A stretch of 64,000 nt of DNA from a bacterium (GTDB taxonomy: Bacteria; Moduliflexota; Moduliflexia; Moduliflexales; JAUQPW01): positions 23,873-87,872 of the forward strand of contig JAUQPW010000005.1 in assembly GCA_030550175.1 (NCBI GenBank), given 5' to 3'. The position numbers were made by a program, and so were the translations under genes. The notes beneath the pieces are model-generated. The model saw only the letters and a program-made list of their open reading frames with translations, did no database searches and had not been told where the DNA came from. Below are positions 19,837 through 57,058 of this stretch, piece by piece; positions within the stretch are counted from its first letter, which is position 1, and every line of letters starts with the position of its first letter.

Positions 19837-19865
19837 TTGACAGGAAAGTGACTCCAGGCTATCCT
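19837..19865 (+). promoter_or_regulatory. Sigma70-type promoter for the YkgJ-carbamoyltransferase operon
   Basis: TTGACA-17 nt-TATCCT. Confidence 0.6.
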
Positions 19866-19931: not shown

Positions 19932-20147
19932 ATGATTCCGGGTGTACCTGATGAAGCCTGTATTCGATGTGGGGTCTGTTGTATTGCTTTGCGAGTTAAA
20001 TTACCGGATGGAACTTACAAACCGGAAGGGATGCCTTGTCCTTACCTGATTCCGAGAACCGAGGAAAAGCCCGCGAGCTGTAAAATCTACGATCAACGAC
20101 CCCAGGCTTGTGAGCTTTTCTTTTGCATGGATTTATTACCCCTTTGA
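19932..20147 (+). CDS. YkgJ family cysteine-cluster (CxxCxxCC) protein
   Basis: CIRCGVCC...CPYL...CKIYDQRPQAC. Confidence 0.8.
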   Translation: MIPGVPDEACIRCGVCCIALRVKLPDGTYKPEGMPCPYLIPRTEEKPASCKIYDQRPQACELFFCMDLLPL

Positions 20148-20180
20148 TTCCCATACGGGAAGGTAGGATGTGGAATAACT

Positions 20181-21998
20181 ATGTATATCCTTGGTATATC
20201 CTGTTTTTATCACGATAGTGCGGCCTGCTTAGCACAAGATGGAGAAATTATAGCTGCCGCTCAAGAAGAGCGATTTACCCGAAAGAAACACGATCATAGG
20301 TTTCCCCGGCATGCCATTCGTTATTGTCTGGAAGAGGCAGGAATTACAGTAAAAGATCTGGATTTTATCGGTTTCTACGATAAACCTCTCCTTAAGTTTG
20401 AGCGGATTTTGGAAACCTATCTAGCTTATGCGCCTTTTGGAATCCGGTCTTTTATGAAGGCCATTCCTCTCTGGATCAAACAAAAGCTTTGGATTCCCGA
20501 CCTTATCAAAAAAGAGCTGGGATATGAGGGAAAGATCATCTTCCCCGAGCATCATGAATCCCATGCTGCCAGTACCTTTTATCCTTCTCCCTTTAGAGAG
20601 GCAGCTATTTTGACCATGGATGGGGTCGGGGAATGGACCACAACCAGTTTCGGAGCCGGTTGTGGGAATGATTTTGAATTAGATTATGAAATTCGATTTC
20701 CCCACTCGTTAGGACTTTTATATTCGGCTTTTACGTATTACACAGGTTTTAAGGTCAACTCCGGCGAATACAAAGTAATGGGGCTGGCCCCTTATGGAGA
20801 GCCCAAATATGTAGATTTAATTTTAACCAAGCTGATGGACTTGAAAGAAGATGGATCTTTCAAGCTGAATATGGAGTATTTTGATTACTGTGCCGGATTG
20901 ACCATGACCAATGAGAAGTTCCATAAGCTTTTGGGAGGACCTCCGCGGGTACCGGAGACAAAGTTGACCCAAAAGGAAATGGATCTGGCCCGGTCCATCC
21001 AGGTGGTCACCGAAGAGACTATGCTCCGGATGGCCCGACATGTCCACAAAGTTACCGGGCAGAAAAACCTCTGTCTGGCCGGAGGAGTCGCCTTAAACTG
21101 TGTTGGCAATGGGCTTATCTTGAGGGAAGGCCCCTTTGAGAACATCTGGATACAGCCCGCCGCCGGAGATGCCGGAGGAGCTCTGGGTGCGGCCCTGTTT
21201 ATATGGTATAAATATCTGGGAAACGAGCGAAAACCCGATGGGAAGAAAGACTTCCAGAAAGGTTCTTATCTGGGACCTGCTTACTCCGACGAGGCCATTG
21301 AGAAGTTTCTGAGAAGTCGTCAGATACCTTACAAACGCCTGAGTCGAGAAGAACTGATCGATGTAGTTTCAGATCTTATCGCCAAAGAAAAGGTTGTGGG
21401 ATGGTTCCAGGGACGTATGGAATTCGGGCCTCGGGCTTTAGGCTCCCGAAGTATCCTGGGTGATCCCCGATCACCTAAAATGCAGGCGGAGATGAATATC
21501 AAGATTAAATTCCGGGAAGGGTTTAGACCCTTTGCCCCCAGTGTCCTGCTGGATAAGGTCTCTGATTATTTTGAGTTGGACCGGGAAAGCCCCTATATGC
21601 TGCTGGTGGCACCGGTCAAGGAAATCCATCGAAGGAAAATGACCGAAGAAGAACAAAAACTCTGGGGAATCGATAAGTTAAATGTGGTTCGTTCTTCGGT
21701 ACCGGCCATTACCCATGTAGATTACTCGGCAAGGATCCAAACGGTTAATCGAGAAGATCATCCCCTCTACTATGATTTAATCCATAAATTTTATGAAAAG
21801 ACCGGCTGTCCCGTTATCATCAACACCTCTTTCAATGTTCGAGGGGAACCCATTGTATGCCGACCAGAAGAGGCCTATATCTGCTTTATGCGAACTAATA
21901 TCGATTACCTTGCCATGGGTAGTTTCTTACTGGACAAACGCGAGCAAAAACCCCTGGAAAAAGACATTGATTGGAAAAAGGAGTTCGAACTAGATTGA
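20181..21998 (+). CDS. O-carbamoyltransferase (NodU/CmcH/TobZ/SxtI family)
   Basis: HHESHAAS, TMDGVGE, GEYKVMGLAPYG, GGVALNC, GDAGGALG, MEFGPRALG.RSIL, FRPFAP, NTSFN.RGEPIV. Confidence 0.95.
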   Translation: MYILGISCFYHDSAACLAQDGEIIAAAQEERFTRKKHDHRFPRHAIRYCLEEAGITVKDLDFIGFYDKPLLKFERILETYLAYAPFGIRSFMKAIPLWIKQKLWIPDLIKKELGYEGKIIFPEHHESHAASTFYPSPFREAAILTMDGVGEWTTTSFGAGCGNDFELDYEIRFPHSLGLLYSAFTYYTGFKVNSGEYKVMGLAPYGEPKYVDLILTKLMDLKEDGSFKLNMEYFDYCAGLTMTNEKFHKLLGGPPRVPETKLTQKEMDLARSIQVVTEETMLRMARHVHKVTGQKNLCLAGGVALNCVGNGLILREGPFENIWIQPAAGDAGGALGAALFIWYKYLGNERKPDGKKDFQKGSYLGPAYSDEAIEKFLRSRQIPYKRLSREELIDVVSDLIAKEKVVGWFQGRMEFGPRALGSRSILGDPRSPKMQAEMNIKIKFREGFRPFAPSVLLDKVSDYFELDRESPYMLLVAPVKEIHRRKMTEEEQKLWGIDKLNVVRSSVPAITHVDYSARIQTVNREDHPLYYDLIHKFYEKTGCPVIINTSFNVRGEPIVCRPEEAYICFMRTNIDYLAMGSFLLDKREQKPLEKDIDWKKEFELD

Positions 21999-22435
21999 AA
22001 GCCTTATTAGAAGAAATAAAAAAAATAAAACCAGATCGTAAAGATCTCCGTAAATTCGGAATAACCATTGCCATCGTACTGGGACTTCTGGGGAGTCTGG
22101 CCCTTTACAAGGGAAGCGGTAAATACCTGGGGTTCTGGGGAATAGGAGGCCTGTTTCTGGTTCTGGGTCTTCTCCTTCCAGAACTTCTTAAACCCATCCA
22201 CAAAGCCTGGATGGCCCTGGCTCTGATTTTGGGCTGGATTAACACCCATATCATCCTGGGTCTCATCTTTTTCCTGATCTTTACCCCTATTGGGCTGATT
22301 TTGAGATTGATGGGAAAAGACCTGCTCGATCAAAAATTTCCCCAACCCGGAACCGGATCGGGTTCTGATTTGACTTACTGGAAAAAAAGAGAAAAAAATT
22401 CGAAAGATAAAGTAAGATATGAACGGATGTTTTAA
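21995..22435 (+). CDS. SxtJ-family membrane protein
   Basis: LRKFG, P..L.PI.KAWM, LGWINT.IILGLIFFLIFTPIG, YW...YERMF. TTG start overlaps the upstream TGA (TTGA). Confidence 0.85.
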   Translation: MKALLEEIKKIKPDRKDLRKFGITIAIVLGLLGSLALYKGSGKYLGFWGIGGLFLVLGLLLPELLKPIHKAWMALALILGWINTHIILGLIFFLIFTPIGLILRLMGKDLLDQKFPQPGTGSGSDLTYWKKREKNSKDKVRYERMF

Positions 22436-22512
22436 TCCACTCTCTGCTGTCTGTTGCTCCCCACCTTATACGGGTAGTTTCCAACAGACAATGGATAAGG
22501 GATAATCCACAG

Positions 22513-22671
22513 ATGAGTAAATTATCTCTCCTCTCTGAGTTCTGGCTCTTTCTGAGAGAACGGAAAAAATGGTGGTTAGGCCCTATCGTGTTTATGCTCC
22601 TTGGATTGGGTTTACTGATTATCCTTACAGAAGGTTCGGCGGTAGCTCCTTTTATTTATGCTCTTTTCTAA
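22513..22671 (+). CDS. DUF5989/SxtK-like small membrane protein (52 aa, missing from the ORF track)
   Basis: Hand translation MSKLSLLSEFWLFLRERKKWWLGPIVFMLLGLGLLIILTEGSAVAPFIYALF*, with the family motifs RKKWWL.P and S.VAPFIY.LF. Confidence 0.9.
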   Translation: MSKLSLLSEFWLFLRERKKWWLGPIVFMLLGLGLLIILTEGSAVAPFIYALF

Positions 22672-22683
22672 TTGTTCGTAGTT

Positions 22684-22775
22684 CTTGTCCGTTGTCTGTT
22701 GTCAGGTGGTGATATCTTTCATTGGGTAATTCTACTTGAGGACAACGGACAACGGACAACGGACAACGGACAATG
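22684..22775. repeat. Inverted (GACAACG)n heptamer arrays before GT2
   Basis: TTGTCCGTTGTCTGTTGTC (22684-22702) and (GACAACG)x4+GACAATG (22741-22775); the last unit supplies the GT2 ATG. Confidence 0.9.
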
Positions 22776-23519
22776 ACGGACAAAAATAAACGGCTTTCCA
22801 GCATTTCGGTTTTTTTCCCCTGCTATAACGACGCAGGAACTATCGCAAGTCTTGTTATTTCCGCTTTTAAAACCCTTCGTTCCCTGACCGATGACTATGA
22901 AGTGATTGTCGTCGATGATGCCAGTAAGGATTTTAGTCGGGAAATTTTGGAAGAACTGAAAACCCACTATAAAAACCTTAAAGTCATTTATCATACCCAG
23001 AACAAAGGATATGGAGGGGCCCTTCGATCCGGTTTTGCCCATGCTACCAAGGATTTTGTTTTCTATACCGATGGAGACGGTCAGTACGATCCTCGAGAAT
23101 TGGCCCTCCTGGCCCCTGAAATGGTGGATGGGGTCGATATCGTGAACGGGTATAAAATCCAACGGCATGATCCCTTTTATCGAATTATCCTGGGTAAAAT
23201 TTATTATATCGTAGTAAAAAACCTTTTTCGATTAAAGGTCAGAGATGTAGATTGTGACTTTCGTCTTATCCGACGGGAGGTGTTTGATAAAATCGAACTG
23301 GAATCCGATGATGGGGCTATCTGTGTGGAAATGGTGAAAAAGCTTCAAAATGCCGGATTTGTTTTCAAAGAGGTCCCGGTTAATCATTATCACCGGGTTT
23401 GTGGAAGATCCCAGGTCTTTGTTGTAAACCGGGTCGTTAAAGGAGGGATCACCGTCCTTAAACTCTGGTGGAAAATCTGTCTAAAACCTTTTCTTGCCAG
23501 AAAAAACCTGATCCGTTAA
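22773..23519 (+). CDS. GT2 polyprenol-phosphate glycosyltransferase (DPM1/ArnC-like)
   Basis: SVFFPCYND, VIVVDDASKD, NKGYGGALRSG, TDGDGQYDP, DVDCDFRL.RR. Confidence 0.9.
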   Translation: MTDKNKRLSSISVFFPCYNDAGTIASLVISAFKTLRSLTDDYEVIVVDDASKDFSREILEELKTHYKNLKVIYHTQNKGYGGALRSGFAHATKDFVFYTDGDGQYDPRELALLAPEMVDGVDIVNGYKIQRHDPFYRIILGKIYYIVVKNLFRLKVRDVDCDFRLIRREVFDKIELESDDGAICVEMVKKLQNAGFVFKEVPVNHYHRVCGRSQVFVVNRVVKGGITVLKLWWKICLKPFLARKNLIR

Positions 23520-23553
23520 GATCGATCCAGGAAATTATCCTTTTGTTCGCGAT

Positions 23554-23919
23554 ATGAAACCTATCGGATTAATTCTGATTCCTGTGGTATTTGCGTCTAT
23601 TAGTGAGTTGTCCATGAAGAAAGCCATATCCTCCTTCGGTGAAATATCTTTCAAAGCCTTACTCACCTGGACTTTTCATATCACCCTTTTTACTAATCCT
23701 TATGTCCTCTTTGCTTTGGGACTATATGCGATAAGTGTCCTGCTCTGGTTGGTTGTGTTATCCAGAGTCCCTTTGAGCTATGCCTACCCCATGGTTAGTT
23801 TAAGCTATGTCCTGGTTATACTGGCATCAAAATGGATTTTAGGAGAATCGATATCCTGGATCCGATGGGTAGGGGTCCTACTGATCTGCCTGGGAGTTGC
23901 CTTGATCGCCAGATCCTAA
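23554..23919 (+). CDS. EamA/SMR-type small transporter (ArnE/ArnF-like flippase)
   Basis: 121 aa, 4 TM segments, W..VLSRVPLSYAYPMVSLSY, LGE.IS..RWVGV.LI..GV. Confidence 0.85.
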   Translation: MKPIGLILIPVVFASISELSMKKAISSFGEISFKALLTWTFHITLFTNPYVLFALGLYAISVLLWLVVLSRVPLSYAYPMVSLSYVLVILASKWILGESISWIRWVGVLLICLGVALIARS

Positions 23920-23950
23920 GGACCTGGGAATCAGAAGTCGGAGTGAGGCT

Positions 23951-24727
23951 GTGAATCTGCGCGAATACGAAATCATGTACCATCTGGAGGATACGTACTG
24001 GTGGTACCGGGGGATGAGGAAAATAGCGTATACCCTTATCCCCGAGCTCTTCCACTGCAAAACCTCTGCAAAGATTCTCGATGCCGGATGTGGAACGGGT
24101 GCTCGACTGCAATACCTTTTGGAGATCGGGAACCGGACCCGGGAGACAGGCTTAAAACCCCAAACCGTTGGGATCGATCTATCTTCTGAAGCCCTTAAAT
24201 TCTGTAAAATTCGTAAACTGAGAGATCTCGTTCAGGCCTCGGTAGAAGACCTCCCTTTCCGCGATGAAACCTTTGATTTTATAACTTCCTATGATGTCTT
24301 GGTTTGTGTTCCCAACGATGAGAAAGCCCTTCGGGAATATTACCGGGTTTGCCGACCCGGCGGAAAAGTTTTTTTAACGGTAGCTGCCTTCAACTGGCTC
24401 CGGGGCGAGCACGACCGGGCTGGACAGGTCCTAAGACGATACACCGAATCGGATTTGTGTCAAAAATTAGAAAAAGCCGGTTTTACCGTTGAAAAAACTA
24501 CCTATGCCAATACCTTCCTTGTTCTACCCATTTTCCTGTTCCGTAAAGCCGTTAATCTCCTAAATCCGGCGAAGACCGATCAGGAAGCTATTTCTGACTT
24601 TCATTTCACACCGACTTACCTCAATACGTTTTTGACCTCTCTCCTTTACCTGGAAGCCTTTTTACTCAAATGGATCCGCTTTCCGATAGGAGTGACCCTT
24701 ATAGTTAAGGGAAGGAAAAGGGTCTAA
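23951..24727 (+). CDS. Class I SAM-dependent methyltransferase
   Basis: YWWYRG, ILDAGCGTG, VGID.S, ASVEDLPF..ETFD, RVCRPGG; GTG start. Confidence 0.9.
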   Translation: MNLREYEIMYHLEDTYWWYRGMRKIAYTLIPELFHCKTSAKILDAGCGTGARLQYLLEIGNRTRETGLKPQTVGIDLSSEALKFCKIRKLRDLVQASVEDLPFRDETFDFITSYDVLVCVPNDEKALREYYRVCRPGGKVFLTVAAFNWLRGEHDRAGQVLRRYTESDLCQKLEKAGFTVEKTTYANTFLVLPIFLFRKAVNLLNPAKTDQEAISDFHFTPTYLNTFLTSLLYLEAFLLKWIRFPIGVTLIVKGRKRV

Positions 24728-25118: not shown

Positions 25119-26060
25119 ATGGGAGTAAATCAAACACCTTCCCATCTTGCGGTTATTATCAATCACTCTTCCGGTTCTAAGGATAAACAGAAAGAGATAG
25201 AGCAGGTGACCGAGCTATTTAAATCAAAAAATATCAAAGCCTCTATCTCGCTGGCCCAAAGTGGTGAAGAGTTGGTGGAAACCACCTACCGGATAATTCG
25301 TGAGGGTTATGATATGGTTGTAGCCGGAGGCGGTGATGGTACCATCAATACGGTTGCCTCTGTGCTGGTGGGCACGGATAAGATCCTGGGAATCCTCCCG
25401 CTGGGGACACTTAATCACTTTGCCAAAGATTTAAAAATACCGCTGGATCTTGAACAGGCCGTGGATAACCTCATCTCAGGTTCTGTTGTTAGCGTCGATG
25501 TGGGAGAGGTCAACGGATACATCTTCGTTAATAATTCCAGTATAGGCATTTATTCGCATATGGTACGTCACCGGGAGTGGTATCGGCGACGGGGATGGAG
25601 CAAGGGGATCGCTTTCTTTTGGGCATTACTCAAAGTGTTTCACCGCTATCCTTTTTTCAATGTCCGCCTGATCGCAGATGATCAAGAAATCACGCGAATA
25701 ACCCCCTTTGTTTTCGTAGGTAATAACGAATATGAGATAGAAAGTCTTAACATTGGGTCCCGTAGATGTCTCAACGCAGGATATTTATGTTTATATGTGA
25801 CCCACCAAACCGGGCGGTTAGGTCTTCTACGCCTGGCTTTAAGCCTGCTTTTAGGACGGTTACGCCAGGAAAAAGATTTAGATAAGCTCCTGGTTAAAGA
25901 AGTCTGGGTCGGTACCAAACGAAGGAAGCGGAGACGGAGGTATGTGTATGTTTCTGTGGATGGGGAAGTTATTTTGATGGAAATGCCACTTCATTACCAA
26001 ATTCGGCCTCGTGCTCTACAGGTTATGGTACCGAAAAGTAAAGGAGAAACAGAAAACTAA
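25119..26060 (+). CDS. Diacylglycerol kinase family lipid kinase (YegS/BmrU-like)
   Basis: VIIN.SSG, AGGGDGTINTV, ILPLGTLNHFAKDL, FVNNSSIG, DGE. Confidence 0.9.
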   Translation: MGVNQTPSHLAVIINHSSGSKDKQKEIEQVTELFKSKNIKASISLAQSGEELVETTYRIIREGYDMVVAGGGDGTINTVASVLVGTDKILGILPLGTLNHFAKDLKIPLDLEQAVDNLISGSVVSVDVGEVNGYIFVNNSSIGIYSHMVRHREWYRRRGWSKGIAFFWALLKVFHRYPFFNVRLIADDQEITRITPFVFVGNNEYEIESLNIGSRRCLNAGYLCLYVTHQTGRLGLLRLALSLLLGRLRQEKDLDKLLVKEVWVGTKRRKRRRRYVYVSVDGEVILMEMPLHYQIRPRALQVMVPKSKGETEN

Positions 26061-26075: not shown

Positions 26076-26670
26076 ATGCTTACGCTGGTCCATCTTTCAG
26101 ACCTCCATTTTGGTCGTGTAGACACGGCTGTTGTGCATTCTCTCAGGACAACGGTTGAGGAGATCCAACCGGAGGTGGTTGTTGTATCAGGGGATCTTAC
26201 CCAGCGCGCTCGAACGCAAGAGTTCAAAGAGGCCCGGGCTTTTTTAGATCTCCTTCCCTCAACCCAAATTATCGTTCCTGGGAATCATGATATACCTCAC
26301 CCATCATCCCTTTGAGGTACCGGAAGGTTATCATACCTGTGAACCGGTCGGTCGCTCAGGTGGGGCTATGGAAATCCTGGTGGAATGCGGAGTAGATGTT
26401 TTTCTTGCCGGTCATCTCCACATAAGCCATGTAGGCGATACCGTTGTAGGTTACAAAACAGGCAGGTATTCTGCTCTGATCATCCAAGCAGGAACGGCTA
26501 CTTCTACCCGCAGCCAGGGGAAACCTCCCTCCTTTAACAGGGTTCGTATAGCCCATTCGCAAATTACGGTTGAACGCTTCTCCTGGCACCCCGAAAACAG
26601 GGCCTTCGGGGTCACTTCAATTCAACACTTTCGGCGCACCCCAGAAGGGTGGTTACCTATCCGGAATTAA
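26076..26670 (+). pseudogene. Metallophosphoesterase (Icc/CpdA-like), internally deleted and frameshifted
   Basis: Frame 1 holds HLSDLHFG, SGDLTQR and PGNHDIP, then stops at 26315. Frame 2 resumes at THHPF and continues to LAGHLH and QAGTATS. The central region expected between GNHD and HHP is absent. Confidence 0.8.
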
Positions 26671-37816: not shown

Positions 37817-39113
37817 AGGATCCGAATATTTCCTTAACTTTATAAATTCCCCTAACCAGGGCGTCGATATCCTCTTTTGTATTGTAAAAAGCCAGTGATG
37901 CTCGGGCGGTGGCCGGTATCCCGAAGCGTTGCATCACTGGCTGGGTACAGTGATGACCGGTACGGATGGCAATCCCTTCGGTATCTAATATCGTACCCAT
38001 ATCGTGGGGATGTACACCTTCCAGGACAAAAGACAAAACACTTGCTTTCTCCTTAGCCGTTCCGATAATACGTAAACCCTCGATTTCGGATAGGGCTTCT
38101 GTTGCATATTTAAGTAATTCCTGCTCGTAAGCGGCGATGGCATCTAAACCGATTTTACTCACGTAATCAACGGCAACTCCCAGTCCAATCCCCCCCTCGA
38201 TATGGGGCGTACCTGCTTCGAATTTAGCTGGTAAAGTATTATAAATGGTTTTTTCAAAGGTGACCGAGAGAATCATGTCACCGCCACCCTGGTAAGGAGG
38301 CATGACTTCCAGCAATCTTTCTTTACCGTACAGAATACCAATTCCCGTAGGGCCGAAGATTTTATGCCCTGAAAAGACGTAAAAGTCACAATCCAGATCT
38401 CTTACATCTACCGGCATGTGTTGTACGGCCTGCGCTCCATCGATTAAAACCGGGATTCCATAGTTATGGGCCATCTGGATAATTTGACGAACGGGATTAA
38501 CGGTACCTAAGGAGTTGGATACCTGAACGACCGAAACAAATTTTGTTCTTTCGTTTAAAAGTTCCTCGTACTCGTCGATCAACAGCTCGCCTGCGTCGTT
38601 CATTGGAATAATCCGTAGTTTAGCCCCTTTTTCTTCACAGAGCATCTGCCAGGGAACAATATTGGAGTGGTGCTCCATGGCCGAGATGATAATCTCATCT
38701 CCCGGCTGTATGTACTTTCGCCCGTAGCTGTTTACAACCAGATTGATTCCTTCGGTGGCGCCGCGAACGAAAATAATTTCTTTATCCTTGGAAGCATTTA
38801 TAAACCGTCTTATCCTGGATCGGGCCCCTTCATAGGCCTGGGTAGCCTTTTCGCTCAGGAAATGAACACCTCGGTGAACATTAGCGTTTTCTTCTGTATA
38901 ATATTTCTGTATGGCCTCTATAACTACCCGGGGCTTCTGAGTGGTGGCTGCATTGTCGAGATAAACCAGGGGTTTACCATGGACTCGCTGTTTCAAAATG
39001 GGAAAGTCTTCCCTGATTTTTTCCACATCAAACCCTGTTCTGAACTGGGTCGAAGATCGTGGAGTTAGCTGCTCGGTGATGTTTGGTATGGTTATATTGG
39101 AACTGGCTTTCAT
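37815..39113 (-). CDS. sufS: Cysteine desulfurase SufS
   Basis: LVYLDNAATTQKP, EHHSNIVPW, DGAQ, SGHKIFGP, RTGHHCTQP. Start moved to 39113 because the upstream extension is translated repeat. Confidence 0.97.
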   Translation of the reverse strand: MKASSNITIPNITEQLTPRSSTQFRTGFDVEKIREDFPILKQRVHGKPLVYLDNAATTQKPRVVIEAIQKYYTEENANVHRGVHFLSEKATQAYEGARSRIRRFINASKDKEIIFVRGATEGINLVVNSYGRKYIQPGDEIIISAMEHHSNIVPWQMLCEEKGAKLRIIPMNDAGELLIDEYEELLNERTKFVSVVQVSNSLGTVNPVRQIIQMAHNYGIPVLIDGAQAVQHMPVDVRDLDCDFYVFSGHKIFGPTGIGILYGKERLLEVMPPYQGGGDMILSVTFEKTIYNTLPAKFEAGTPHIEGGIGLGVAVDYVSKIGLDAIAAYEQELLKYATEALSEIEGLRIIGTAKEKASVLSFVLEGVHPHDMGTILDTEGIAIRTGHHCTQPVMQRFGIPATARASLAFYNTKEDIDALVRGIYKVKEIFGS

Positions 39114-39116
39114 CTC

Positions 39117-39185
39117 TTGTCCGTTGTCTGTTGTCCGTTGTCCGTTGCGACTTTTAGAGAGACAACGGACAACGGACAACGGACG
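39117..39185. repeat. Inverted (GACAACG)n arrays (sufD-sufS junction)
   Basis: TTGTCCGTTGTCTGTTGTCCGTTGTCCGTTG and GACAACGGACAACGGACAACGGAC separated by a 13-nt spacer. Confidence 0.9.
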
Positions 39186-45164: not shown

Positions 45165-47513
45165 ATGAGATCTATTCCGCATCTAACGAAACGTTCAACC
45201 TTCCTTCTCGGATGTCTGGCCCTTCTATCCTTGGGGGGCTATGGATTAGACCGACACTTTGCGATTCCCCAGGGACTAAGGGGCAGCTATTATCCTAATC
45301 CAAACTGGCAGGGAGAACCTGTGTTGGTGGCCCTGGATTCAGAAATTTCTACTGATTTACTCAAAGTGTGCCGGAAAAGATTCCAGGAAAATCGATTCAG
45401 TGTCTTATGGACGGGATTTATGATCATCGAAAAGACCGGAGAGTATGCCTTTACCATCGCTTCGGACGATGGTTCTTCTCTGTATATAAATAACCAGCTC
45501 GTGGTGGACAATGGAGGTATCCACGGTTTAGAAACGGCTACCGGACATATCTATCTGGAAGCCGGAGTTTATCCAATTCAACTGAAATATTTTCAGGCCG
45601 GAGGTTCCTACGGGCTGGCCCTTTCCTGGGCTCAAGGGAATCAATCTTTACAACGTCTTCCTTCATCGATTTTGTCGCCCCAACCGGTGAATTATCGAAA
45701 TTACAAGCTTCGTCAAAAACTGCATGCCGTTGGGTTTCTTCTTAAACTGGTTTGGGCAGGAGTCTCAGGCTATCTGATCTTCTCTTCGGATCGATGGTTA
45801 AAGCTTTTTAAATCCCTGGGGATTAAAGTGAGAAGATTTTATTCCAGGGCCCATCCAGATTATCCCCCCTATTATCCCATCCCCTTACGTCAGGGACTCT
45901 TTGCCATGTTTTTTTTCCTGTTTTTGACGGTTTTTCATACCTGGCCTTTGGTGACAAATCCGGCCCGATGGTCCCGTAACAACAACCTGGATACCGTACA
46001 TATTACCTGGACCTTGTGTTGGATTGCCCATAGTCTAACCCGGGATCCCCTACACCTCTTCCATGCCAACATTTTTTATCCTGAACCCTACGCTCTGACT
46101 TTTTCCGATCCGTTTCTCGTTCCGGGTCTTCTGGCCGTACCCTTACGGGAGTTCGGAGCTTCCCCGGTTCTTACCTATAATGTGCTCTTGCTTTTAGGAT
46201 TTTTTCTGACGGCCCTGGCCATATATGTGCTGATGGTAAGGTTCACAGGAGATCCTCTGGCAGGTCTTTTGGGAGGCTCCCTCCTGGCCTTTAATGCCCA
46301 TACCTTAACCCGGTTACCGCATCTTCAAGCCCATTACGCTTTCTGGCTTCCGTGGGCTCTTTTGACCCTGGATCGGTTAATCCTCCACCGGCACCTGAAA
46401 GATGCCATCTGGTTAGGCTGCTTGGTAGCCCTTTTGGGCCTGACTTCGGGTTACCTGGGGGTCTTTGCTATTTTTGCTGTAGGTATCGGGCTGATGATAC
46501 GGATCGACGAATGGTGGGGAAGCCGTGCCGTTTCCGTTCTTTCTCGTATGGTTTTGGCCGGCCTGGTTACCGCTATGATCATCCTCCCCTTATTGGCACC
46601 CTACTGGGCCGTTCATCGGAGTCCAGAAATGATCCGCCCGCTCGATACCGTAATATCTGCTTCCTTAACCTCTTACCTGGCTGCCGTCGGAAGATTGCAT
46701 TATGCTATCTGGAGTCATCGTTTATCCTCCTTCCAGGAAACATTATTCCCGGGTATTCTTGCGCTAGGACTCTCGGTCATCAATCTAGTTAATGGACGAC
46801 GCATCCTGGGCAACGGACGGATCCGTATGTTCACGGGTATCGGAATAATGGGTTTTTTATTATCTTTTGGGCCTGCAACACCAGTTTATACCTGGCTTTA
46901 TCGACTCTTTCCACCTTTGTGGGGAATTCGCGCAACCTTCCGGTTCGGATATCTGTTCTTACTGGCCATAGCAGCCCTTGCGAGCTATGGCCTTATCCAG
47001 CTGAGACGGCGATTCGCCAGACGCCGCTGGATAACCCCCCTGGCCTTTGGACTTGTAATCGCGGTCAATGTAGAAGCCCTTCGCGCACCCATGAATTATG
47101 TTCCCTTTGAGGGAATTCCGGAAATTTATCAATACATTGCCCGGGATCCCGGACCTGCTGTAGTTGCCGAAATGCCTTTCTACCCCATCCCGCAGGCCGC
47201 CGATAACGCCCCTTATATGCTGGCTTCAACCCTGCACTGGAAACCCCTCGTCAACGGGTATAGTAGCTTCTTCCCCTCCTCCTACAGACGGTATTCTAAA
47301 ATACTCCCGGACTTCCCATCGGAAGCTGCCATTGAAGAACTACAACGGATAGGAGTCACCTATGTGGTGGTTCATCCGGCCCATTATTACGACCCCTCTA
47401 AGGCAGAAACAGTCCTTGCGACCCTGGCCCATCGACCTGAGTTCATACAGGTAGCTACAGGATCAGATGGAACCGTGCTTTACCGATTACAACAGCGTAG
47501 CAATCCTCGATAA
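45165..47513 (+). CDS. PA14 domain + multi-TM GT-C-like (YfhO-like) membrane protein
   Basis: N-terminal TM; PA14 (GL.G.YY.N.NW.GEP, ASDDGSSLYIN..LVVDNGG.H); DT..ITW.L.W..H.L, NIFYP; C-terminal HW.PLVNGYS. Confidence 0.75.
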   Translation: MRSIPHLTKRSTFLLGCLALLSLGGYGLDRHFAIPQGLRGSYYPNPNWQGEPVLVALDSEISTDLLKVCRKRFQENRFSVLWTGFMIIEKTGEYAFTIASDDGSSLYINNQLVVDNGGIHGLETATGHIYLEAGVYPIQLKYFQAGGSYGLALSWAQGNQSLQRLPSSILSPQPVNYRNYKLRQKLHAVGFLLKLVWAGVSGYLIFSSDRWLKLFKSLGIKVRRFYSRAHPDYPPYYPIPLRQGLFAMFFFLFLTVFHTWPLVTNPARWSRNNNLDTVHITWTLCWIAHSLTRDPLHLFHANIFYPEPYALTFSDPFLVPGLLAVPLREFGASPVLTYNVLLLLGFFLTALAIYVLMVRFTGDPLAGLLGGSLLAFNAHTLTRLPHLQAHYAFWLPWALLTLDRLILHRHLKDAIWLGCLVALLGLTSGYLGVFAIFAVGIGLMIRIDEWWGSRAVSVLSRMVLAGLVTAMIILPLLAPYWAVHRSPEMIRPLDTVISASLTSYLAAVGRLHYAIWSHRLSSFQETLFPGILALGLSVINLVNGRRILGNGRIRMFTGIGIMGFLLSFGPATPVYTWLYRLFPPLWGIRATFRFGYLFLLAIAALASYGLIQLRRRFARRRWITPLAFGLVIAVNVEALRAPMNYVPFEGIPEIYQYIARDPGPAVVAEMPFYPIPQAADNAPYMLASTLHWKPLVNGYSSFFPSSYRRYSKILPDFPSEAAIEELQRIGVTYVVVHPAHYYDPSKAETVLATLAHRPEFIQVATGSDGTVLYRLQQRSNPR

Positions 47514-47516
47514 AAC

Positions 47517-48800
47517 TTAGGGTTTTATTTTCTCTGCAAAAATCCGGTCATAGAGAGCCTCTGCCAGGATTTTATGCCCGATAACATTGGGGTGGCAGGT
47601 ATCGCTGGTGACATACCACAGGCGCCTGTTCCTGAGGGATTCCTCCCCGAATAAATCCTTATAGTACTGAACAAGCTCCGGATAGCGCTTTCCTTCCCGA
47701 ACTTCAGGAATACTTTGGATCAACACATGCATGCCGTCTATCAGTGGAACATTCTTGCTTTGAGCAACCTTTCGCATAATATCCAGATAACTCTTTGGGC
47801 AGCAAAGTCCCAGGAGAACCGTTTCAATACCTTTTTCCCTTCCTGTATCGATCAGGTATTCTAAATTTTTTTGGTATTCTGGAAAGGTCACAAAGGGTTC
47901 CACAGGACCCTTTGGGTTTTGGCTATGCAGGGCATCAAAGGGATTATAAAAGGAAAGAAGGATTTTCCGCATCAACTTATACGTGGAGAAGTTTCTTAAA
48001 AATCCCTGCAGATCTTCCATCCAGGGATTAAACTTCAAAAACTTCTTGGCCCTTTGAGGCACAGGCTTTCCGTCATTGGCCCCAAAGCTGAGAATCATCA
48101 TATCGGGAGAATATTTTAAGGCATAGTGTCGAAAAGCAGCCACCCCATGATCCGTGGTATACCCCGGTATTCCCAGGTTAATAATCTCATATCGGGTGGA
48201 ATTCTGAACAGAATTCAGCTTATCCTCTAGAAATTTTGAAAACCTCTCGTCTTGGTTGACTCCCCACCCGAACGTGCTGGAATCTCCCAGAAGAACAATT
48301 CGATAGACATTTTTCTCCTTGTGGATGGAAATCTCTTCGGTTCGAAATCCCTCGGAGTTAGATTTCATAAACACTTTAATCCCCTTTTCCAGTTCTATCC
48401 GATTTACCGTGTTGGTAACATAAGCAGAAACCCGGGGCTTCATCTTATAGTGGACATAGGGGGCTTCTTCAAAATAGTTCAGCCAGTCTGCAGACTCCAC
48501 GGAAAGGGTATTATCCATAATTTGTCTGTAAATTCCTTCCGCGGCAAAAAAATTGATATCGTTGGAGGCCCAGACGGGTACCTCAATCTGAAAATTCTTA
48601 CTTTTAACCACGTCGGTATTGATTCCTGAAAATCTGATAAGGGCTTCCAGCAGGGCGAAAAAGATGAGGGGAATTCCCATAGTTAAAAAAACCCTCTCTC
48701 CCGTTTTTCTCCAAAGATTTCTTTTCCTCATAAAACTTATTTTACCGATCCCCCTATCCGATATCCGGGTTTTAGATAAGATTTCATTTTCTGTTGACAT
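47517..48800 (-). CDS. Membrane-anchored SGNH/GDSL hydrolase-fold protein
   Basis: Block I LGDSSTFG, block II NLGIPG, block III FGAND, block V DTCHPN; N-terminal TM. Confidence 0.88.
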   Translation of the reverse strand: MSTENEILSKTRISDRGIGKISFMRKRNLWRKTGERVFLTMGIPLIFFALLEALIRFSGINTDVVKSKNFQIEVPVWASNDINFFAAEGIYRQIMDNTLSVESADWLNYFEEAPYVHYKMKPRVSAYVTNTVNRIELEKGIKVFMKSNSEGFRTEEISIHKEKNVYRIVLLGDSSTFGWGVNQDERFSKFLEDKLNSVQNSTRYEIINLGIPGYTTDHGVAAFRHYALKYSPDMMILSFGANDGKPVPQRAKKFLKFNPWMEDLQGFLRNFSTYKLMRKILLSFYNPFDALHSQNPKGPVEPFVTFPEYQKNLEYLIDTGREKGIETVLLGLCCPKSYLDIMRKVAQSKNVPLIDGMHVLIQSIPEVREGKRYPELVQYYKDLFGEESLRNRRLWYVTSDTCHPNVIGHKILAEALYDRIFAEKIKP

Positions 48801-49073
48801 CCGGATTTCTTTCGATAATATCTTTGATGCTATAGATGCTATTAGAATAAAGCGAACTTACTAGAATGAGCAACCGGATTATATCCTAAAAAAGCAGGAA
48901 ATGACCTCCTCAGAGAGTTTTTTTTACTTAAAATGTGTAATTCTTGTTTGAGGGAATTCCAGGGTTTACGTACCTTACCGTTTTATCAATTCCCTTTCTT
49001 TTTTAAATTTAGCGGATTTAACTTCAGCCGGACCTGGCAGGAAAAGTCTCTGTGGCTCATTACCGGATGATAA

Positions 49074-51140
49074 ATGTCGAAACCGATGACCATTTTTCCT
49101 CCTTCCATAAGGTCAGGGAAACTAAAGATTTTCCTTCTAGGATGCTTGATCATTCTATCCTTGGGGGCTTATGGACTGAATCGATATTTTCGAATTCCCC
49201 ATGGACTGGAGGGAAAGTACTACGCTAACCTGAATTGGGAAGGAGAACCCGAGTTTGTAACCCTTGACCAGGAAATTTCGCAAGACTTACTTAGAGAACA
49301 CCAGGCGAGATTTCCGGGAAATCAATTCAGTATCGAGTGGAGAGGGTTTATAGCCATCCAGGAGACCGGAGAATATAGTTTTGCAACCCAGTCCGATGAC
49401 GGTTCTTCACTTTATATAAACGATCGGCTTGTTGTAGATAACGGAGGGGTTCATGGGTTAAAAATGGCCAGAGGGCAGATTTCTCTGAAGGCAAAAATTT
49501 ATCCGATTCGAATCCGATATTTTCAAATCGGAGGGAATTATGGGTTGGTCCTTTTATGGGCCCGAGGAGACCAATCCCTGGAACCTCTTCCTTCCTCCCT
49601 CCTGTTACCCCCTTCGGTCCGTTCCCGAGATTATATCTTCAAACAGAGATTAGACTCTGCTATAAACCTTCTGGCATTGATCTGGTCAGGAGTCTTCCTG
49701 TATGTCCTCCATCTTACCCGACAAAAAATCTCGGCTTTAGGTATCATTATAGGGGTTGGAATAGCGGCCCGGTTTATTATGACCCTGAGTACTTACGGGA
49801 TTCTATGGCCGGATTCCATTATCTACTATAATACGGCCCGTGCCATCCTGAGCCAGTTCAGTCTTTCTCCCCATTCGATTTATCACACCCCCCTGTATCC
49901 GTTATTTTTGGCGCTGTTTTTATATTTCGGTGAAACTGCGAAAATAGGAACCCTCGTTATCATAGCCCAACGCATCTTAGGGATCCTGTCTATCATTTTC
50001 TTTTATAAAATCGCAAAAAAAATCTTTGATCCCACCGTCGCCTTTTACAGTAGCCTGCTCTTTAGCCTATATACCCTCCTGTTATATTATGAAACCGTCG
50101 TTCAAACCGAAGTACTGTTTATTTTTTTCTTAAGTTTATTGCTGTATGCCTCTTTAAAGATCCTGGAGGAAAATTCCTGGAAGGGATATCTTCTCCTGGG
50201 GATTTTATACGGTTTACTTGCTCTGACCCGACCCGTAGCCCAGTTTTTTATTTTAAGTCTGCCACTTGTCCTCTGGTTTAAAGCCGGGAAAGTTAAGAGA
50301 ATACTATTCCCGTCTGTTCTGGCTTTCGCCGCTTATCTTGCCGTTGTTTCTCCCTGGATGTTCATCAATCATAAGACCTATGGGTTTTGGGGTCTCAGCA
50401 GAGGTCAGGGCCTGGGGCTTTTTTACAGGGTATTGGATCTGGATGGCTTGAGGCCTGTAGAGAATACGCGTTACCCCCTCATAAAACAAATCTACGAGGA
50501 AGAACGTTTACGAAAAGAGGTGGTTTATTACCAGGTAAAAAATCGGTTAACTTTCAAACTCGGATACTCGGAACTTGAGGCCGATAAGGTTCTGTTTTCC
50601 TTTGCGTTAGAAACCCTCCGGGTACATCCTTACCAATTTATCATCAATACCTTCAAGCGATTCTATGAAATGCTTACAGTTCCGGAGTACAGCGTCCATA
50701 TCTGCTCGGTCAACCTTATCCCCAATTTATGTTGCAAATGGACGAGGGGATTCTCTGTGGGTGCTTTTCCCAATACCCCTACCGATCATTTCCCCTCTAT
50801 AAAGTGGGGCCTCCATTATTTTTTTACAAAAGGGACTATGAGGATGAAGGTAGTTTTGATATTTTGTTTACTGGGAATTATTTTTTATTTTTCTCATAGG
50901 CGGGATTCCAGAGCCTATGCAATTCTGTTGTTGATGACCATAGGTTACTTTACCCTGATACCCTCGATTTTTAATAGTCCAGAAGACAGATATCGGCTTC
51001 CCATCGATGCACTTTTATTTATGTTTGCCGTTGAAGGCATCTATGGGCTGATCCGGTATCTGCAAGGACTTAAAACCTTTTTAAATATTTGGGTCGGAGA
51101 TAAATCCAAGGCCCTTCTAAGGGGTTATTACTCGGGATGA
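49074..51140 (+). CDS. PA14 domain + ArnT/PMT-family (GT39/GT83-like) glycosyltransferase
   Basis: PA14 (QSDDGSSLYINDRLVVDNGGVH); PDSIIYY, HTPLYPLFLA, TEVLF, LTRP; many TM segments; DRYRLP. Confidence 0.82.
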   Translation: MSKPMTIFPPSIRSGKLKIFLLGCLIILSLGAYGLNRYFRIPHGLEGKYYANLNWEGEPEFVTLDQEISQDLLREHQARFPGNQFSIEWRGFIAIQETGEYSFATQSDDGSSLYINDRLVVDNGGVHGLKMARGQISLKAKIYPIRIRYFQIGGNYGLVLLWARGDQSLEPLPSSLLLPPSVRSRDYIFKQRLDSAINLLALIWSGVFLYVLHLTRQKISALGIIIGVGIAARFIMTLSTYGILWPDSIIYYNTARAILSQFSLSPHSIYHTPLYPLFLALFLYFGETAKIGTLVIIAQRILGILSIIFFYKIAKKIFDPTVAFYSSLLFSLYTLLLYYETVVQTEVLFIFFLSLLLYASLKILEENSWKGYLLLGILYGLLALTRPVAQFFILSLPLVLWFKAGKVKRILFPSVLAFAAYLAVVSPWMFINHKTYGFWGLSRGQGLGLFYRVLDLDGLRPVENTRYPLIKQIYEEERLRKEVVYYQVKNRLTFKLGYSELEADKVLFSFALETLRVHPYQFIINTFKRFYEMLTVPEYSVHICSVNLIPNLCCKWTRGFSVGAFPNTPTDHFPSIKWGLHYFFTKGTMRMKVVLIFCLLGIIFYFSHRRDSRAYAILLLMTIGYFTLIPSIFNSPEDRYRLPIDALLFMFAVEGIYGLIRYLQGLKTFLNIWVGDKSKALLRGYYSG

Positions 51141-51802
51141 AATTCATATTCATCATGAAAGGGATACTCCGACGAAGCCTTCCCCAGGTTTTACTTTTAT
51201 CAGGAAGTATAGGGTTCTCTCTTTATCAACCCGACCTGGTGATTGTAGGTTACGTTCTGAACGACCCGGAGACTGCAAAGGTGAAAGAGCCGTATATGAG
51301 AAAGGTCAGGAACCTCCTGGAGAGTGAATCTGACTTTTCTAAAAAACTGAAAGAAATCTCCCATCTTTATCGTTATCTTCACTTTCTCTATTACTGGGGA
51401 ATTGCCGGAGGGGATTTGTATTATAACGACTTTCTGGAATCTCTTTATTCGGAAAAGACCAATCCTTACCTATCCCACACCCAGCAGAATCTGGCTGAAA
51501 TAATTCAGCTTGTGAAGCAGCATAACGGTCGTGTGTTGATCGTTTTATTTCCGATTTTTAGCCTGGAACGCACAGAAGAAGAGCGGTTTACTAAAGCACG
51601 GAATATGCTTCAGGAAATCTGTGACCGGCACGGAGCGGTTTTCTTGAATAGGTATCCTGCTTTCCGGGAAGCCTTAAAAAAAGGAAAAGCAAAGCGGTAT
51701 TGGGTAAATCCTTTCGATTCCCATCCGAACAGGGAAGGTCACAGGATCTTTGCAGAAAAGATCTTTAAAACCCTTGTCACCGAGAAATGGGTAGATCTTT
51801 AA
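51137..51802 (+). pseudogene. SGNH paralogue with an in-frame internal deletion removing the catalytic Ser block
   Basis: Aligns with 57425-58447 on both sides of a ~112-aa gap (..LLLSGSI | G..LYQPDLVIVGYVLND..). It lacks GDS and block II but keeps ND and DSHPN. Confidence 0.75.
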
Positions 51803-51828
51803 AAAGTTGGGGTAAAGGAAGAAAATCT

Positions 51829-54219
51829 ATGCCTTTTAATGTCCAAAAAGTTTTTCTTCTTCTAAGAAACCGAGGACTTCTGGCCCTGGCCTTTTCCATG
51901 ACCCTGATTTTGTCTTTTTTCTGGTTCCTGCCCCCTCGGGGCTTAACGGTCTATTATTATAGCAATTCGGGATGGAGAGGAGAACCTGTCTTTTCTCAAC
52001 GTGAGGATCATATAAACTTGAATACAGTCCGGCAAAGGCATGAAACTTTTCCTCAAACCGGTTTCAGTATTCTCTGGACCGGATGGATCCGGATAGATCG
52101 GGAAGGAGAGTATACCTTTTTTACAAGATCCGATGATGGCTCTTTTATTTCTATTGATAATACCCTGGTGGTCAATAACGGAGGGGTTCATCCGCCCCAA
52201 GTAGCTTCTGGAAAAATCTCTTTAAATCGAGGAATTCATCGTATCGATGTTAAATATTTCCAAGAAAGAGGAGGCTATAAACTGCTGGTACACTGGACAG
52301 AGCCTGGGGGAAGAGAGACGGAAATTCCCCCGCATATTCTCTATGCTCGTCCCCCCTTTAAAGGAGTCGGGTTTCTACTCCGTCACTTAGGAGTTCTTTA
52401 TATCCTATCCTGGTTGTTTCTTCTCTGGATGATTACGGACAGGAAAGTCCTGGGGGAAAAAGGGCGCCTGGTTTTAGCCCTTGTGCCGATTTTGATTCTT
52501 CCCGTTTTCTGGTTCTGGCCTCCTCGAGGTTTAACAGCCAGTTATTATGATAACCCGGAATGGAGGGGAGAACCTGTCTTTTCCAGACGTGAAAAGTCCA
52601 TCAACCTGGAAAAAATTGATTCCCTGCAGGGGGTCTTCCCCTCCCGAAACTTCAGTATCCTCTGGGAGGGATGGATCGAAATAGATCGGGAGGGCGAATA
52701 TACCTTTTCCACCATATCCGATGATGGTTCTTTCCTTTACCTAGATGATAGCCCCGTTGTAGAGAATGGGGGGTATCACGTTGCCAGGAAGGCCTCAGGA
52801 AAAATCTTTCTAACCCGGGGGATGCATCGAATTAAAATCGGCTATTTTCAGGGTGGTGGAGAATATGAATTATTTGTACTCTGGACGGGAGAGGGAGGGG
52901 TAGAAACCCATCTTCCTTCGGATCTTCTCTATCCCCAGCCTCTGCCTGAAGGAATAGAATTTTTGGTCCGAAATTTAAAGGGTCTCTATGCCCTGGCCTG
53001 GTTGTGTTTTCTCGGGGTCGTGATACACAGGCAAGTCGTCAAGGAGAGGGAAAGGAAGGTTCAGGTTTTAAAAAGATATGTCCAGAACATTTCCCTTTCC
53101 CTGGCGGCGATTCTGGTTTTTGTCCTCGTAGCAGAAGGAACCATTCGGTTGATTTTATATCTCCAGGAAAATAGAAAAGACCTTCAACTACGCCTGAAGG
53201 AGTCCAAAGAAGCTGATTTTAATACGAATTCCCAGACCTATAACTTGAAAGGCATCGTCCAGGCCAGTCCCTACGAAGGGATCATTTACGAATTAAAGCC
53301 TCTGCTATCGGGTTACTTCATGCAAGCCCCCCTGGCTACCAACTCACGAGGATTGAGGGATTTCGAATATAGTGAGCAAAAGAAGGAAAATACTTTCAGA
53401 ATCGTGGGACTTGGAGATTCCTCCCTCTTCGGCTGGGGAGTAAAACTGGAGGATACCTCCCTGAAAGTCCTGGAGCGATACCTGAATCAAAATTCTTCTT
53501 CCCTTCGATATGAGGTCATTAACTTTTCCGTCCCGGGCTACAATACAGCTATGGAAGTGGAAGTTTTTATCCAAAAGTGCTTAAAATACTCACCGGATCT
53601 GGTCCTCATGAATTTCAATACCAATGATTATGATATTCCAAACTTCATGAAGCTCCCCGAAGATTACTCCCGGTTAAGAAAATCCTACCTGTTCGACTTT
53701 ATCTATTCCCGATATCAGATTTTACGAGGGAATCCAGAAAAAGAACTTCTCCCCTTTGTCTACGAAGGAAGAACCCTTTCCCGGGAGGAAGCAGACCATC
53801 TGGATGAGGATCCGGCTTTACCCGAAGAATATCGACCTATGGTTGGTACCAAAGGATATATAAGGGCCATGAACAAATTGGGAGAGGTGACCAGGGCTCA
53901 TAAAATTCCGGTGGTCCAGTTTGCCGTGATTTCTTATCCCGGTCTGCCGGAAGATCCCCTTTACCGGCCTAACTCTTTCAAGGAACTTCAATTAAACTTA
54001 ATTACCCGTCTAAGTCAAGAAAACGGCTTTTTCTTTCTGAATACCTATCCTTACTATGTCGATTATGCTAAAAAACACCTGGATGAACTTCCAGGTATCT
54101 TTTGGGTCTCTGGTCAAGATCATCATCCCAATGCCGTCGCTCATAAAATCGATGCCGAGGCCCTCTATCATTTTCTGATAGAAAATAAACTGGTTCCCCT
54201 GGATATTTCCGAAAAGTAA
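51829..54219 (+). CDS. Tandem PA14-PA14 + TM + SGNH hydrolase-fold protein
   Basis: Two PA14 copies (SDDGSF, VV.NGG.H) each preceded by FWF.PPRGLT; SGNH LGDSSLFG, NFSVPG, NTND, QDHHPN. Start moved to 51829. Confidence 0.85.
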   Translation: MPFNVQKVFLLLRNRGLLALAFSMTLILSFFWFLPPRGLTVYYYSNSGWRGEPVFSQREDHINLNTVRQRHETFPQTGFSILWTGWIRIDREGEYTFFTRSDDGSFISIDNTLVVNNGGVHPPQVASGKISLNRGIHRIDVKYFQERGGYKLLVHWTEPGGRETEIPPHILYARPPFKGVGFLLRHLGVLYILSWLFLLWMITDRKVLGEKGRLVLALVPILILPVFWFWPPRGLTASYYDNPEWRGEPVFSRREKSINLEKIDSLQGVFPSRNFSILWEGWIEIDREGEYTFSTISDDGSFLYLDDSPVVENGGYHVARKASGKIFLTRGMHRIKIGYFQGGGEYELFVLWTGEGGVETHLPSDLLYPQPLPEGIEFLVRNLKGLYALAWLCFLGVVIHRQVVKERERKVQVLKRYVQNISLSLAAILVFVLVAEGTIRLILYLQENRKDLQLRLKESKEADFNTNSQTYNLKGIVQASPYEGIIYELKPLLSGYFMQAPLATNSRGLRDFEYSEQKKENTFRIVGLGDSSLFGWGVKLEDTSLKVLERYLNQNSSSLRYEVINFSVPGYNTAMEVEVFIQKCLKYSPDLVLMNFNTNDYDIPNFMKLPEDYSRLRKSYLFDFIYSRYQILRGNPEKELLPFVYEGRTLSREEADHLDEDPALPEEYRPMVGTKGYIRAMNKLGEVTRAHKIPVVQFAVISYPGLPEDPLYRPNSFKELQLNLITRLSQENGFFFLNTYPYYVDYAKKHLDELPGIFWVSGQDHHPNAVAHKIDAEALYHFLIENKLVPLDISEK

Positions 54220-54287
54220 GGCAGGGAAACTCTAAAGCGAATAATTTTAACGGAAAATAGATGATTCCAAAAGGTAGAAAGGAAGAA

Positions 54288-56840: not shown

Positions 56841-57058
56841 CCGCTTTCAGTTGCTTTTCAGATAATTTCGGTCTACCCTTTCCTTTTCCCTACCCTCCTC
56901 CAGGGAAATCCCGCCTTCCCTATCCTTTCCGTATGAAAACGGTTGCTTAAAGGTAAGGTAACCCTGCAGGACTGCCTTATACCGATTCTGATTGAACAGG
57001 TCGTATCCCCTCTACTCCCTCTAAAGAGGAGCGACTTGCGTAGCCCCTACGTAGGCAA

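Follow-up and report, generated by a model that had tools for sequence, protein, structure and literature searches.

A seven-gene string of a Moduliflexota family as a possible join of two separately conserved envelope-decoration modules

The DNA analyzed in this study is a 64,000-nucleotide stretch of contig JAUQPW010000005.1 from a Moduliflexota bacterium (hereafter the window), which contains a string of seven genes for a CxxCxxCC cysteine-cluster protein, a NodU/CmcH/TobZ-type O-carbamoyltransferase (CT), an SxtJ-family membrane protein, a DUF5989 microprotein, a family 2 glycosyltransferase (GT2), a small EamA membrane protein, and a methyltransferase (MT) (Table 1). We tentatively read the string as a lineage-specific join of two separately conserved envelope-decoration modules, in which the trio of CT, SxtJ, and DUF5989 (hereafter the cassette) probably supplies SGNH enzymes outside the cytoplasm with carbamoyl groups; as a whole, we place this reading a little short of an even chance. 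That the two modules are separable is, by itself, very probable. An original prediction made from the same DNA had proposed that SxtJ and DUF5989 anchor CT to an undecaprenyl-linked sugar. The gene content that it described was borne out, as seven plus-strand open reading frames (ORFs) lie where it had placed them and each matches its named family in Pfam or NCBIfam.

The cassette was found far beyond this lineage. One genome per species was scanned, and 80 CT loci were returned with CT identities of 62 to 76% from more than 12 phyla, including Ignavibacteria, Bacteroidota, Nitrospirota, Thermodesulfobacteriota, Acidobacteriota, Gemmatimonadota, Hydrogenedentota, Chloroflexota, and Elusimicrobia. 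Adjacency was counted with hidden Markov models (HMMs) built from our own alignments in the 67 loci that had sufficient flank; SxtJ was adjacent to CT in 66 of them and DUF5989 in 57, and the order CT-SxtJ-DUF5989 was found in 51. In a second phylum, DUF5989 was present in 101 of 251 sampled genomes, and CT adjoined 29 of the 30 best DUF5989 loci. Genes of the other half of the string were rare in the 80 CT loci (GT2-like genes in six, MT in two, and EamA in none). Among the clusters obtained de novo from the neighbors, CarB stands immediately upstream in 14 loci and 11 loci have an NAD-dependent epimerase, the rest being scattered, and an SGNH/GDSL protein with an N-terminal transmembrane (TM) helix stands beside the cassette in at least 25 of 79 CT loci. 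The recurrent neighbors of the cassette are, in this neighborhood check, CarB and membrane-anchored SGNH proteins, not GT2, EamA, or MT. Another housekeeping setting was seen in Schekmanbacteria (L222, 3952–6180), where a 79-amino-acid ORF, a 579-amino-acid CT, and DUF5989 lie just upstream of DUF116, def, and fmt.

The neighborhoods of the 80 closest relatives of GT2, with 658 kb of flanks in total, contained no SxtJ or DUF5989 HMM match and no CT tblastn match. MT was present in the fetched flanks of 29 of these 80 relatives, frequently directly adjacent, and the other neighbors were an epimerase/dehydratase (27), a DegT aminotransferase (19), a small EamA protein (6), a PMT_2 GT-C enzyme (4), and GT2 paralogs. 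The best NCBIfam models for the GT2 of the string are ArnC, PgfS, AglJ, and PpgS, with 46 to 76 bits against cut-offs of 325 to 529, all under the cut-off; its metagenome relatives are 55 to 63% identical. The EamA protein is matched best by ArnF (E 8e-18, 65 bits, under the cut-off of 99) and then by ArnE. The earlier assignment of GT2 and the small EamA protein to a lipid-linked sugar fits this picture, with GT2 relatives that adjoin DegT, epimerases, MT, and PMT_2 GT-C, and on such sequence similarity the pair is probably of this kind.

Within the phylum, nine species genomes were compared, namely, the source genome (G000), its congener G001, and seven genomes of a sister family; CT, SxtJ, and DUF5989 are present in all nine. 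Bacterium UASB14 is one of these nine, which identifies the phylum as Moduliflexota/KSB3. The order of the seven genes is identical in G001. A more distant metagenome contig, L221, which was reached through its DUF5989 protein, keeps all seven genes and their order between flanks that differ on both sides, with identities of 90% for CT, 89% for GT2, 79% for EamA, 77% for the CxxCxxCC protein, and 76% for MT; a PMT/PMT_2 GT-C enzyme and a second GT2 lie directly upstream of the string in this contig. A fourth relative, L141, has GT2-EamA-MT on a contig that ends just upstream of GT2. The seven-gene block is therefore kept as a unit in this Moduliflexota family (G000, G001, and L221). In the sister family, CT (72–74% identical) is adjacent to SxtJ in seven of seven genomes, as in the lepB-queA-CT-SxtJ string of genome G003, and DUF5989 is unlinked from CT-SxtJ (L015–L021); in G003 it follows lgt and a HEAT-repeat gene (L016, 9909–10070). 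No GT2, EamA, MT, or CxxCxxCC gene was found near CT-SxtJ or DUF5989 in the sister family, and its genomes contain no ortholog of the GT2 of the window, the best match being only approximately 30% identical.

Because the halves are separately conserved and joined only in one family, we regard the string as two modules. Anchoring of CT onto a polyprenol-phosphate sugar, the function that the original prediction had assigned to SxtJ and DUF5989, cannot be the general role of these two proteins: the trio nearly always occurs without such a GT2, EamA, or MT, the 80 closest GT2 relatives lack the cassette, and the sister family has the trio but no GT2 ortholog. The anchoring idea also leaves unexplained the invariant FxYxxF tail of DUF5989, predicted to lie outside, and the recurrent pairing of DUF5989 with SGNH genes, both described below.

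The organization of the string also divides it. The most likely start of SxtJ is the TTG at 21995, which gives a protein of 146 amino acids and corrects an earlier start; this TTG overlaps the CT stop codon as TTGA, with AAGGAG 10 nucleotides upstream, and the CT-SxtJ overlap is also 4 nucleotides in L221. A long hairpin formed by inverted heptamer arrays fills the 101-nucleotide spacer between DUF5989 and GT2, its 3′ arm reaching the GT2 start codon. With the TTGA overlap and AAGGAG on one side and the hairpin before GT2 on the other, CT and SxtJ are taken to be translationally coupled, unlike the two halves of the string, and with so stable a hairpin, continuous transcription across the spacer is no more than a possibility. 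A second GGACAAC/TTGTCCG hairpin element occupies a spacer at 39113–39184, and the pattern GGACAACGGACAAC, with at most one mismatch, has nine matches in the window versus zero expected. Phase variation at (GGACAAC)n was considered and rejected, as the copy number is equal in G001 and the element recurs in the window; the array looks like a dispersed repeat element of the source genome and not a switch. The TTGACA-17-TATCCT promoter that had been predicted ahead of the string does exist as a site in the 212-nucleotide divergent spacer, but it is a consensus match only, and such sites are not above chance regionally (14 found versus 8.6 ± 3.3 expected).

CT scores far above the Pfam cut-offs, with 350.5 bits (E 1.6e-104) for Carbam_trans_N and 242.1 bits (E 3e-72) for Carbam_trans_C; it therefore carries both the Kae1-like domain, which is Carbam_trans_N, and the YrdC-like domain, which is Carbam_trans_C. 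Its nearest solved relatives are NovN (9s2t), 7xb6, GdmN, and TobZ, with full-length matches to NovN, GdmN, and TobZ and E values of 1e-74 to 4e-89 against the solved structures, and by family membership CT is classed as a TobZ/NovN-type enzyme. Enzymes of this type convert carbamoyl phosphate and ATP to carbamoyl-AMP. Residues H124, H125, H128, D147, and D330 are invariant in an alignment of 41 sequences and are putative counterparts of the TobZ metal ligands. The mean column identity of CT across phyla is 68%. The C-terminal tail of CT (residues 586–605, window positions 21930–21998) lies outside the part aligned with NovN, and W598, L604, and D605 in it are nearly invariant; this conserved tail may be a docking element for membrane partners.

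SxtJ scores 57.1 bits for PF19588 against a cut-off of 24.4. Its mean column identity of 39% is far below those of CT and DUF5989, only W80 and M81 are invariant, and the cross-phyla alignment contains no conserved candidate catalytic His, Ser, or Asp. The AlphaFold2 model has a mean predicted local distance difference test (pLDDT) value of 87 and helices at residues 2–17, 23–46, 52–68, and 70–113, which are laid out as an amphipathic N-terminal helix, two TM helices, and a 44-residue helix, followed by a low-confidence tail. A Foldseek search of the PDB with this model gave no match at E ≤ 0.001. As modeled, SxtJ resembles a scaffold more than it does an enzyme.

DUF5989 matches PF19451 with 84.4 bits against a cut-off of 27. 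The microprotein consists of an amphipathic basic N-terminus with RERKKWW, one TM helix, and the C-terminal tail GSAVAPFIYALF, which ends in FIYALF. By the positive-inside rule, it is predicted to be N-in/C-out, with the tail GSAVAPFIYALF outside. Residues K18, K19, W21, P24, S42, Y49, and F52 are invariant across phyla, and the mean column identity is 72%. Among 150 DUF5989 sequences, the best of 3101 cluster representatives, FxYxxF is present in 142 and forms the very C-terminal end of 128. The acyl-shuttle motif published for DltX and for PatA-type MBOAT proteins is likewise FXYXXF, and in those systems D-alanyl or acetyl travels to an SGNH enzyme on the motif tyrosine; the corresponding Neisseria PatA peptide is FIYANF (PMC12148441). 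DUF5989 is the sole TM microprotein in the source genome with an FxYxxF end. We found no mention of DUF5989 in the literature searched, and no relevant paper there connects DltX to carbamoyltransferases or O-carbamoylation to SGNH enzymes; a sequence search of the PDB with DUF5989 gave only a chance match (E 1.3).

DUF5989 also pairs with SGNH genes away from CT. In L224–L226 (6001–8227) and L227 (3637–5870), it is followed 11 to 12 nucleotides on by a gene for an SGNH-TPR protein of roughly 685 amino acids, with no CT nearby. These pairs come from two unrelated settings, a widely sampled metagenomic lineage and a KSB1 genome. The neighbors of the pair in L224–L226 are PorV and a rotamase.

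The original prediction had suggested multimer modeling of the trio. DUF5989 placed against CT and SxtJ scored 0.51 over three runs, whereas the best of three controls, which included a run with CT replaced, scored 0.00; contact agreement in the complex runs was at least 92%, and the pLDDT of the partner was at least 71. When the complex tool was calibrated, 58 of 80 solved complexes reached the mark, as did 2 of 110 mismatched pairs; only 7 of the 80 solved complexes, but both of the passing mismatches, reached it with scores of 0.60 or less. The prediction gives weak support to a position of DUF5989 against CT and SxtJ and fits a ternary CT-SxtJ-DUF5989 complex, which is needed alike by the anchoring model and by the shuttle model considered next.

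The source genome, which is 97.6% complete, contains at least eight TM-anchored SGNH paralogs. Two SGNH proteins of the window were translated, and both have an N-terminal TM helix with an ExxxR end, as in the cassette-linked SGNH proteins of other phyla. No AT3 protein was found in the source genome, and its single MBOAT protein (contig C130, 52663–53895, outside the window) ends without FxYxxF. The combination of SGNH paralogs with one lone FxYxxF microprotein is suggestive of a shuttle and not proof of it.

These observations can be arranged into a tentative mechanism. The first module would consist of CT, SxtJ, and DUF5989, led here by the CxxCxxCC gene, and would act as a membrane-associated carbamoyl-transfer cassette in which CT docks onto SxtJ and the cytoplasmic N-terminal helix of DUF5989. 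Carbamoyl would then be carried on the invariant tyrosine of the outer FxYxxF tail, as the motif, the architecture, and the gene pairing suggest, and would pass from DUF5989 to membrane-anchored SGNH transferases, as in the transfer from DltX to DltD or from the PatA tail to PatB. The second module (GT2, EamA, and MT) would make, possibly methylate, and flip a polyprenol-phosphate sugar for a GT-C enzyme, judging from family similarity and from the neighbors of its relatives. Both modules would probably decorate the same envelope glycan in this Moduliflexota family, and the cassette would need no lipid-linked sugar as a substrate. On motif, architecture, and gene pairing, a role of DUF5989 as a carbamoyl-tyrosine shuttle to SGNH enzymes is possible, about one step below the reading of the string as a whole; the fuller version, in which DUF5989 shuttles carbamoyl from CT to periplasmic SGNH enzymes without MBOAT or AT3 and is wired in this family to a lipid-linked methyl-sugar module, is doubtful.

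Several points weigh against the reading that we favor. No DltX family was matched by DUF5989 in a Pfam scan at E values up to 10, no MBOAT gene is found among the annotated ORFs of the string or the window, and no SGNH gene adjoins the seven-gene string, the nearest lying 25 to 35 kb off. It is not evident how a cytoplasmic CT would reach and load a tyrosine at the outer face, and SxtJ has no invariant catalytic residue. The order kept across changed flanks in G000, G001, and L221 argues that, in this lineage, the halves are selected together and so may share a substrate.

This last point belongs to the model of the original prediction, in which SxtJ and DUF5989 tether CT at the inner face, CT O-carbamoylates the polyprenol-phosphate sugar made by GT2, MT methylates the sugar, and EamA flips it to a GT-C enzyme. 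The seven-gene block does persist in G001 and L221 despite changed flanks, with a GT-C enzyme and a second GT2 upstream in L221; the solved relatives of CT act on hydroxyls of sugars or small molecules, MT and GT2 have hydrophobic C-terminal segments, and the predicted position of DUF5989 depends on CT (0.51 versus 0.00 for the control), again as weak support. However, such a GT2, EamA, or MT is almost never near the cassette, none of the 80 loci of the GT2 subfamily has the cassette, and the sister family has the cassette without GT2; a strong hairpin separates the two halves, and the model gives no account of the invariant outer FxYxxF tail or of the DUF5989-SGNH pairs. We consider this model unlikely. 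A join by incidental adjacency, with the cassette carbamoylating another envelope molecule or a small metabolite, SxtJ and DUF5989 in a scaffolding or regulatory role, and GT2-EamA-MT inserted alongside, seems to us somewhat unlikely. It would suit the extreme conservation of CT (68%) and DUF5989 (72%) across phyla, the location of the cassette amid housekeeping genes in several lineages (lepB-queA, lgt, def-fmt, and carB), and a GT2 that has no sister-family ortholog but has metagenome relatives of 55 to 63% identity, consistent with horizontal acquisition; it is less easily reconciled with the persistence of the block in L221 or with the glycan genes (epimerase, GT4, and SGNH) among the recurrent neighbors of the cassette.

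The family name of SxtJ and the sxtI-J-K-L order of cyanobacterial clusters invite a further explanation, that the string derives from, or is a variant form of, a saxitoxin-like secondary-metabolite cluster whose product is a soluble, carbamoylated small molecule. In cyanobacterial sxt clusters, a CT of approximately 610 amino acids is followed by genes for proteins of approximately 135 and 54 amino acids and then by a GDSL/SGNH gene, with a joint role only presumed; a 2025 review still gives the roles of SxtJ and SxtK as presumed and says that they "combine with" SxtI. The likeness of DUF5989 to SxtK is one of gene size only, the saxitoxin sxtK being 165 bp, and no protein named SxtK is among the 120 DUF5989 homologs listed. 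The scanned flanks contain no core sxt genes (such as the polyketide-synthase-like SxtA and the amidinotransferase SxtG) and hold transporters, SUF, a lipid kinase, CHRD, and similar families instead; no typical biosynthetic family occurs among the Pfam-annotated flanking ORFs, a subset of the ORFs of the window. Moreover, all nine genomes compared within the phylum have the cassette, as do 101 of the 251 genomes sampled from the second phylum. We regard this explanation as highly improbable.

Table 1. Positions of the seven-gene string, its associated elements, and candidate partner genes in the window.
Feature	Position	Strand	Match or remark
Sigma-70-like promoter match, TTGACA-17-TATCCT, in a 212-nucleotide divergent spacer	19837–19865	+	10 of 12 positions; consensus match only
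CxxCxxCC (YkgJ-like) cysteine-cluster protein, 71 amino acids	19932–20147	+	PF03692, E 8e-6
NodU/CmcH/TobZ-type O-carbamoyltransferase (CT), 605 amino acids	20181–21998	+	PF02543 and PF16861
SxtJ-family membrane protein, 146 amino acids from TTG 21995 (longest ORF from 21971)	21995–22435	+	PF19588
DUF5989 microprotein, 52 amino acids	22513–22671	+	PF19451
Long hairpin, inverted heptamer arrays (TTGTCCG)n/(GGACAAC)n	22671–22774	+	−56.8 kcal/mol, z −10.8
GT2, polyprenol-phosphate sugar synthase type (ArnC/PpgS/DPM1-like), 248 amino acids	22773–23519	+	PF00535, Glycos_transf_2
Small EamA membrane protein (ArnE/ArnF-like), 121 amino acids	23554–23919	+	PF00892
Class I S-adenosylmethionine (SAM) methyltransferase (MT), hydrophobic C-terminal region, 258 amino acids	23951–24727	+	PF08241 and others; DVU_1556-like
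TM-anchored SGNH/GDSL protein, candidate partner	47517–48800	−	N-terminal TM helix ends ExxxR
PA14 and PMT_2 GT-C glycosyltransferase, candidate consumer of the lipid-linked sugar	49074–51140	+	
SGNH (51137–51802) and PA14-SGNH (51787–54219) proteins, candidate partners	51137–54219	+	
TM-anchored SGNH/AlgX-like protein, candidate partner	57341–58447	+	E 2e-21 to a cassette-linked SGNH protein of another phylum

The CxxCxxCC gene that opens the string is kept in the congener G001 and in the relative L221. It was rejected as a member of either conserved module, as no C..C..CC ORF occurs in the 80 CT loci or the 80 GT2 loci. Downstream, 391 nucleotides after MT, lies a YegS/MamU-like lipid kinase gene (25119–26060), which is kept in G001 and has no tblastn match in L221 or L141. 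A metallophosphoesterase frame is split in the window into overlapping ORFs at 26076–26315 and 26287–26670, possibly by a frameshift or deletion; in the congener, the counterparts of the two ORFs are approximately 210 nucleotides apart. A second locus of the window (45165–58447), in which the candidate partner genes of Table 1 lie, is devoted to PA14-domain envelope proteins and has genes for four SGNH/GDSL proteins, of which one is fused to PA14, and for the PA14 and PMT_2 GT-C protein; an 859-amino-acid spermine-synthase-like membrane protein and a PA14 protein are also encoded within it.

From the first description of the saxitoxin cluster onward, SxtJ and SxtK have remained without an assigned role, and the trio of CT, SxtJ, and DUF5989 is among the most conserved uncharacterized bacterial gene sets. 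A tyrosine shuttle in DUF5989, if true, would extend the DltX/PatA mechanism to carbamoyl and to systems without MBOAT, and would add a third route to the acylation of envelope polymers; in this Moduliflexota family, a single operon would then build a surface glycan that bears both carbamoyl and methyl groups. The association with lipid-linked sugar genes is confined to this family and does not characterize the cassette itself, which calls for caution in deriving function from the gene order of one lineage.

The string can be compared with four known systems. It shares with sxtI-sxtJ-sxtK similar gene sizes and order and an SxtJ Pfam match over the cut-off. Unlike in sxt clusters, no other sxt genes and no adjacent SGNH gene accompany the cassette, and a lipid-linked sugar module comes after it; the host is a Moduliflexota bacterium from a hot spring that has not been cultured, and the cassette is a housekeeping-like envelope module. 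With the soluble tailoring O-carbamoyltransferases NovN, GdmN, TobZ, and NodU, CT has the two-domain architecture in common, but its subfamily is far more conserved (62–76% identity across phyla), is tied to two membrane proteins, and has a conserved C-terminal tail past the NovN alignment. The second half of the string resembles Arn/Gtr-type glycosylation, in that GT2 is nearest to ArnC, PpgS, and dolichyl-phosphate hexose synthases, EamA is nearest to ArnF and ArnE, and the loci of GT2 relatives hold DegT aminotransferases, epimerases, and PMT_2 GT-C enzymes. It differs in that the GT2 and EamA matches are all under the curated cut-offs, a membrane-associated MT is added, and the seven genes include no aminotransferase, dehydratase, or GT-C enzyme, the nearest GT-C being that of the second locus (49074–51140).

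The comparison that bears most on our reading is with DltX and the PatA tail. DUF5989 differs from DltX in having no detectable sequence homology to that family, and from both systems in having no MBOAT partner; the donor here would be a soluble ATP-dependent CT, and the cargo would be carbamoyl. Like the DltX/PatA tail, however, DUF5989 is a single-pass protein of approximately 50 amino acids that has an FxYxxF end with an invariant tyrosine and recurs beside a membrane-anchored SGNH enzyme.

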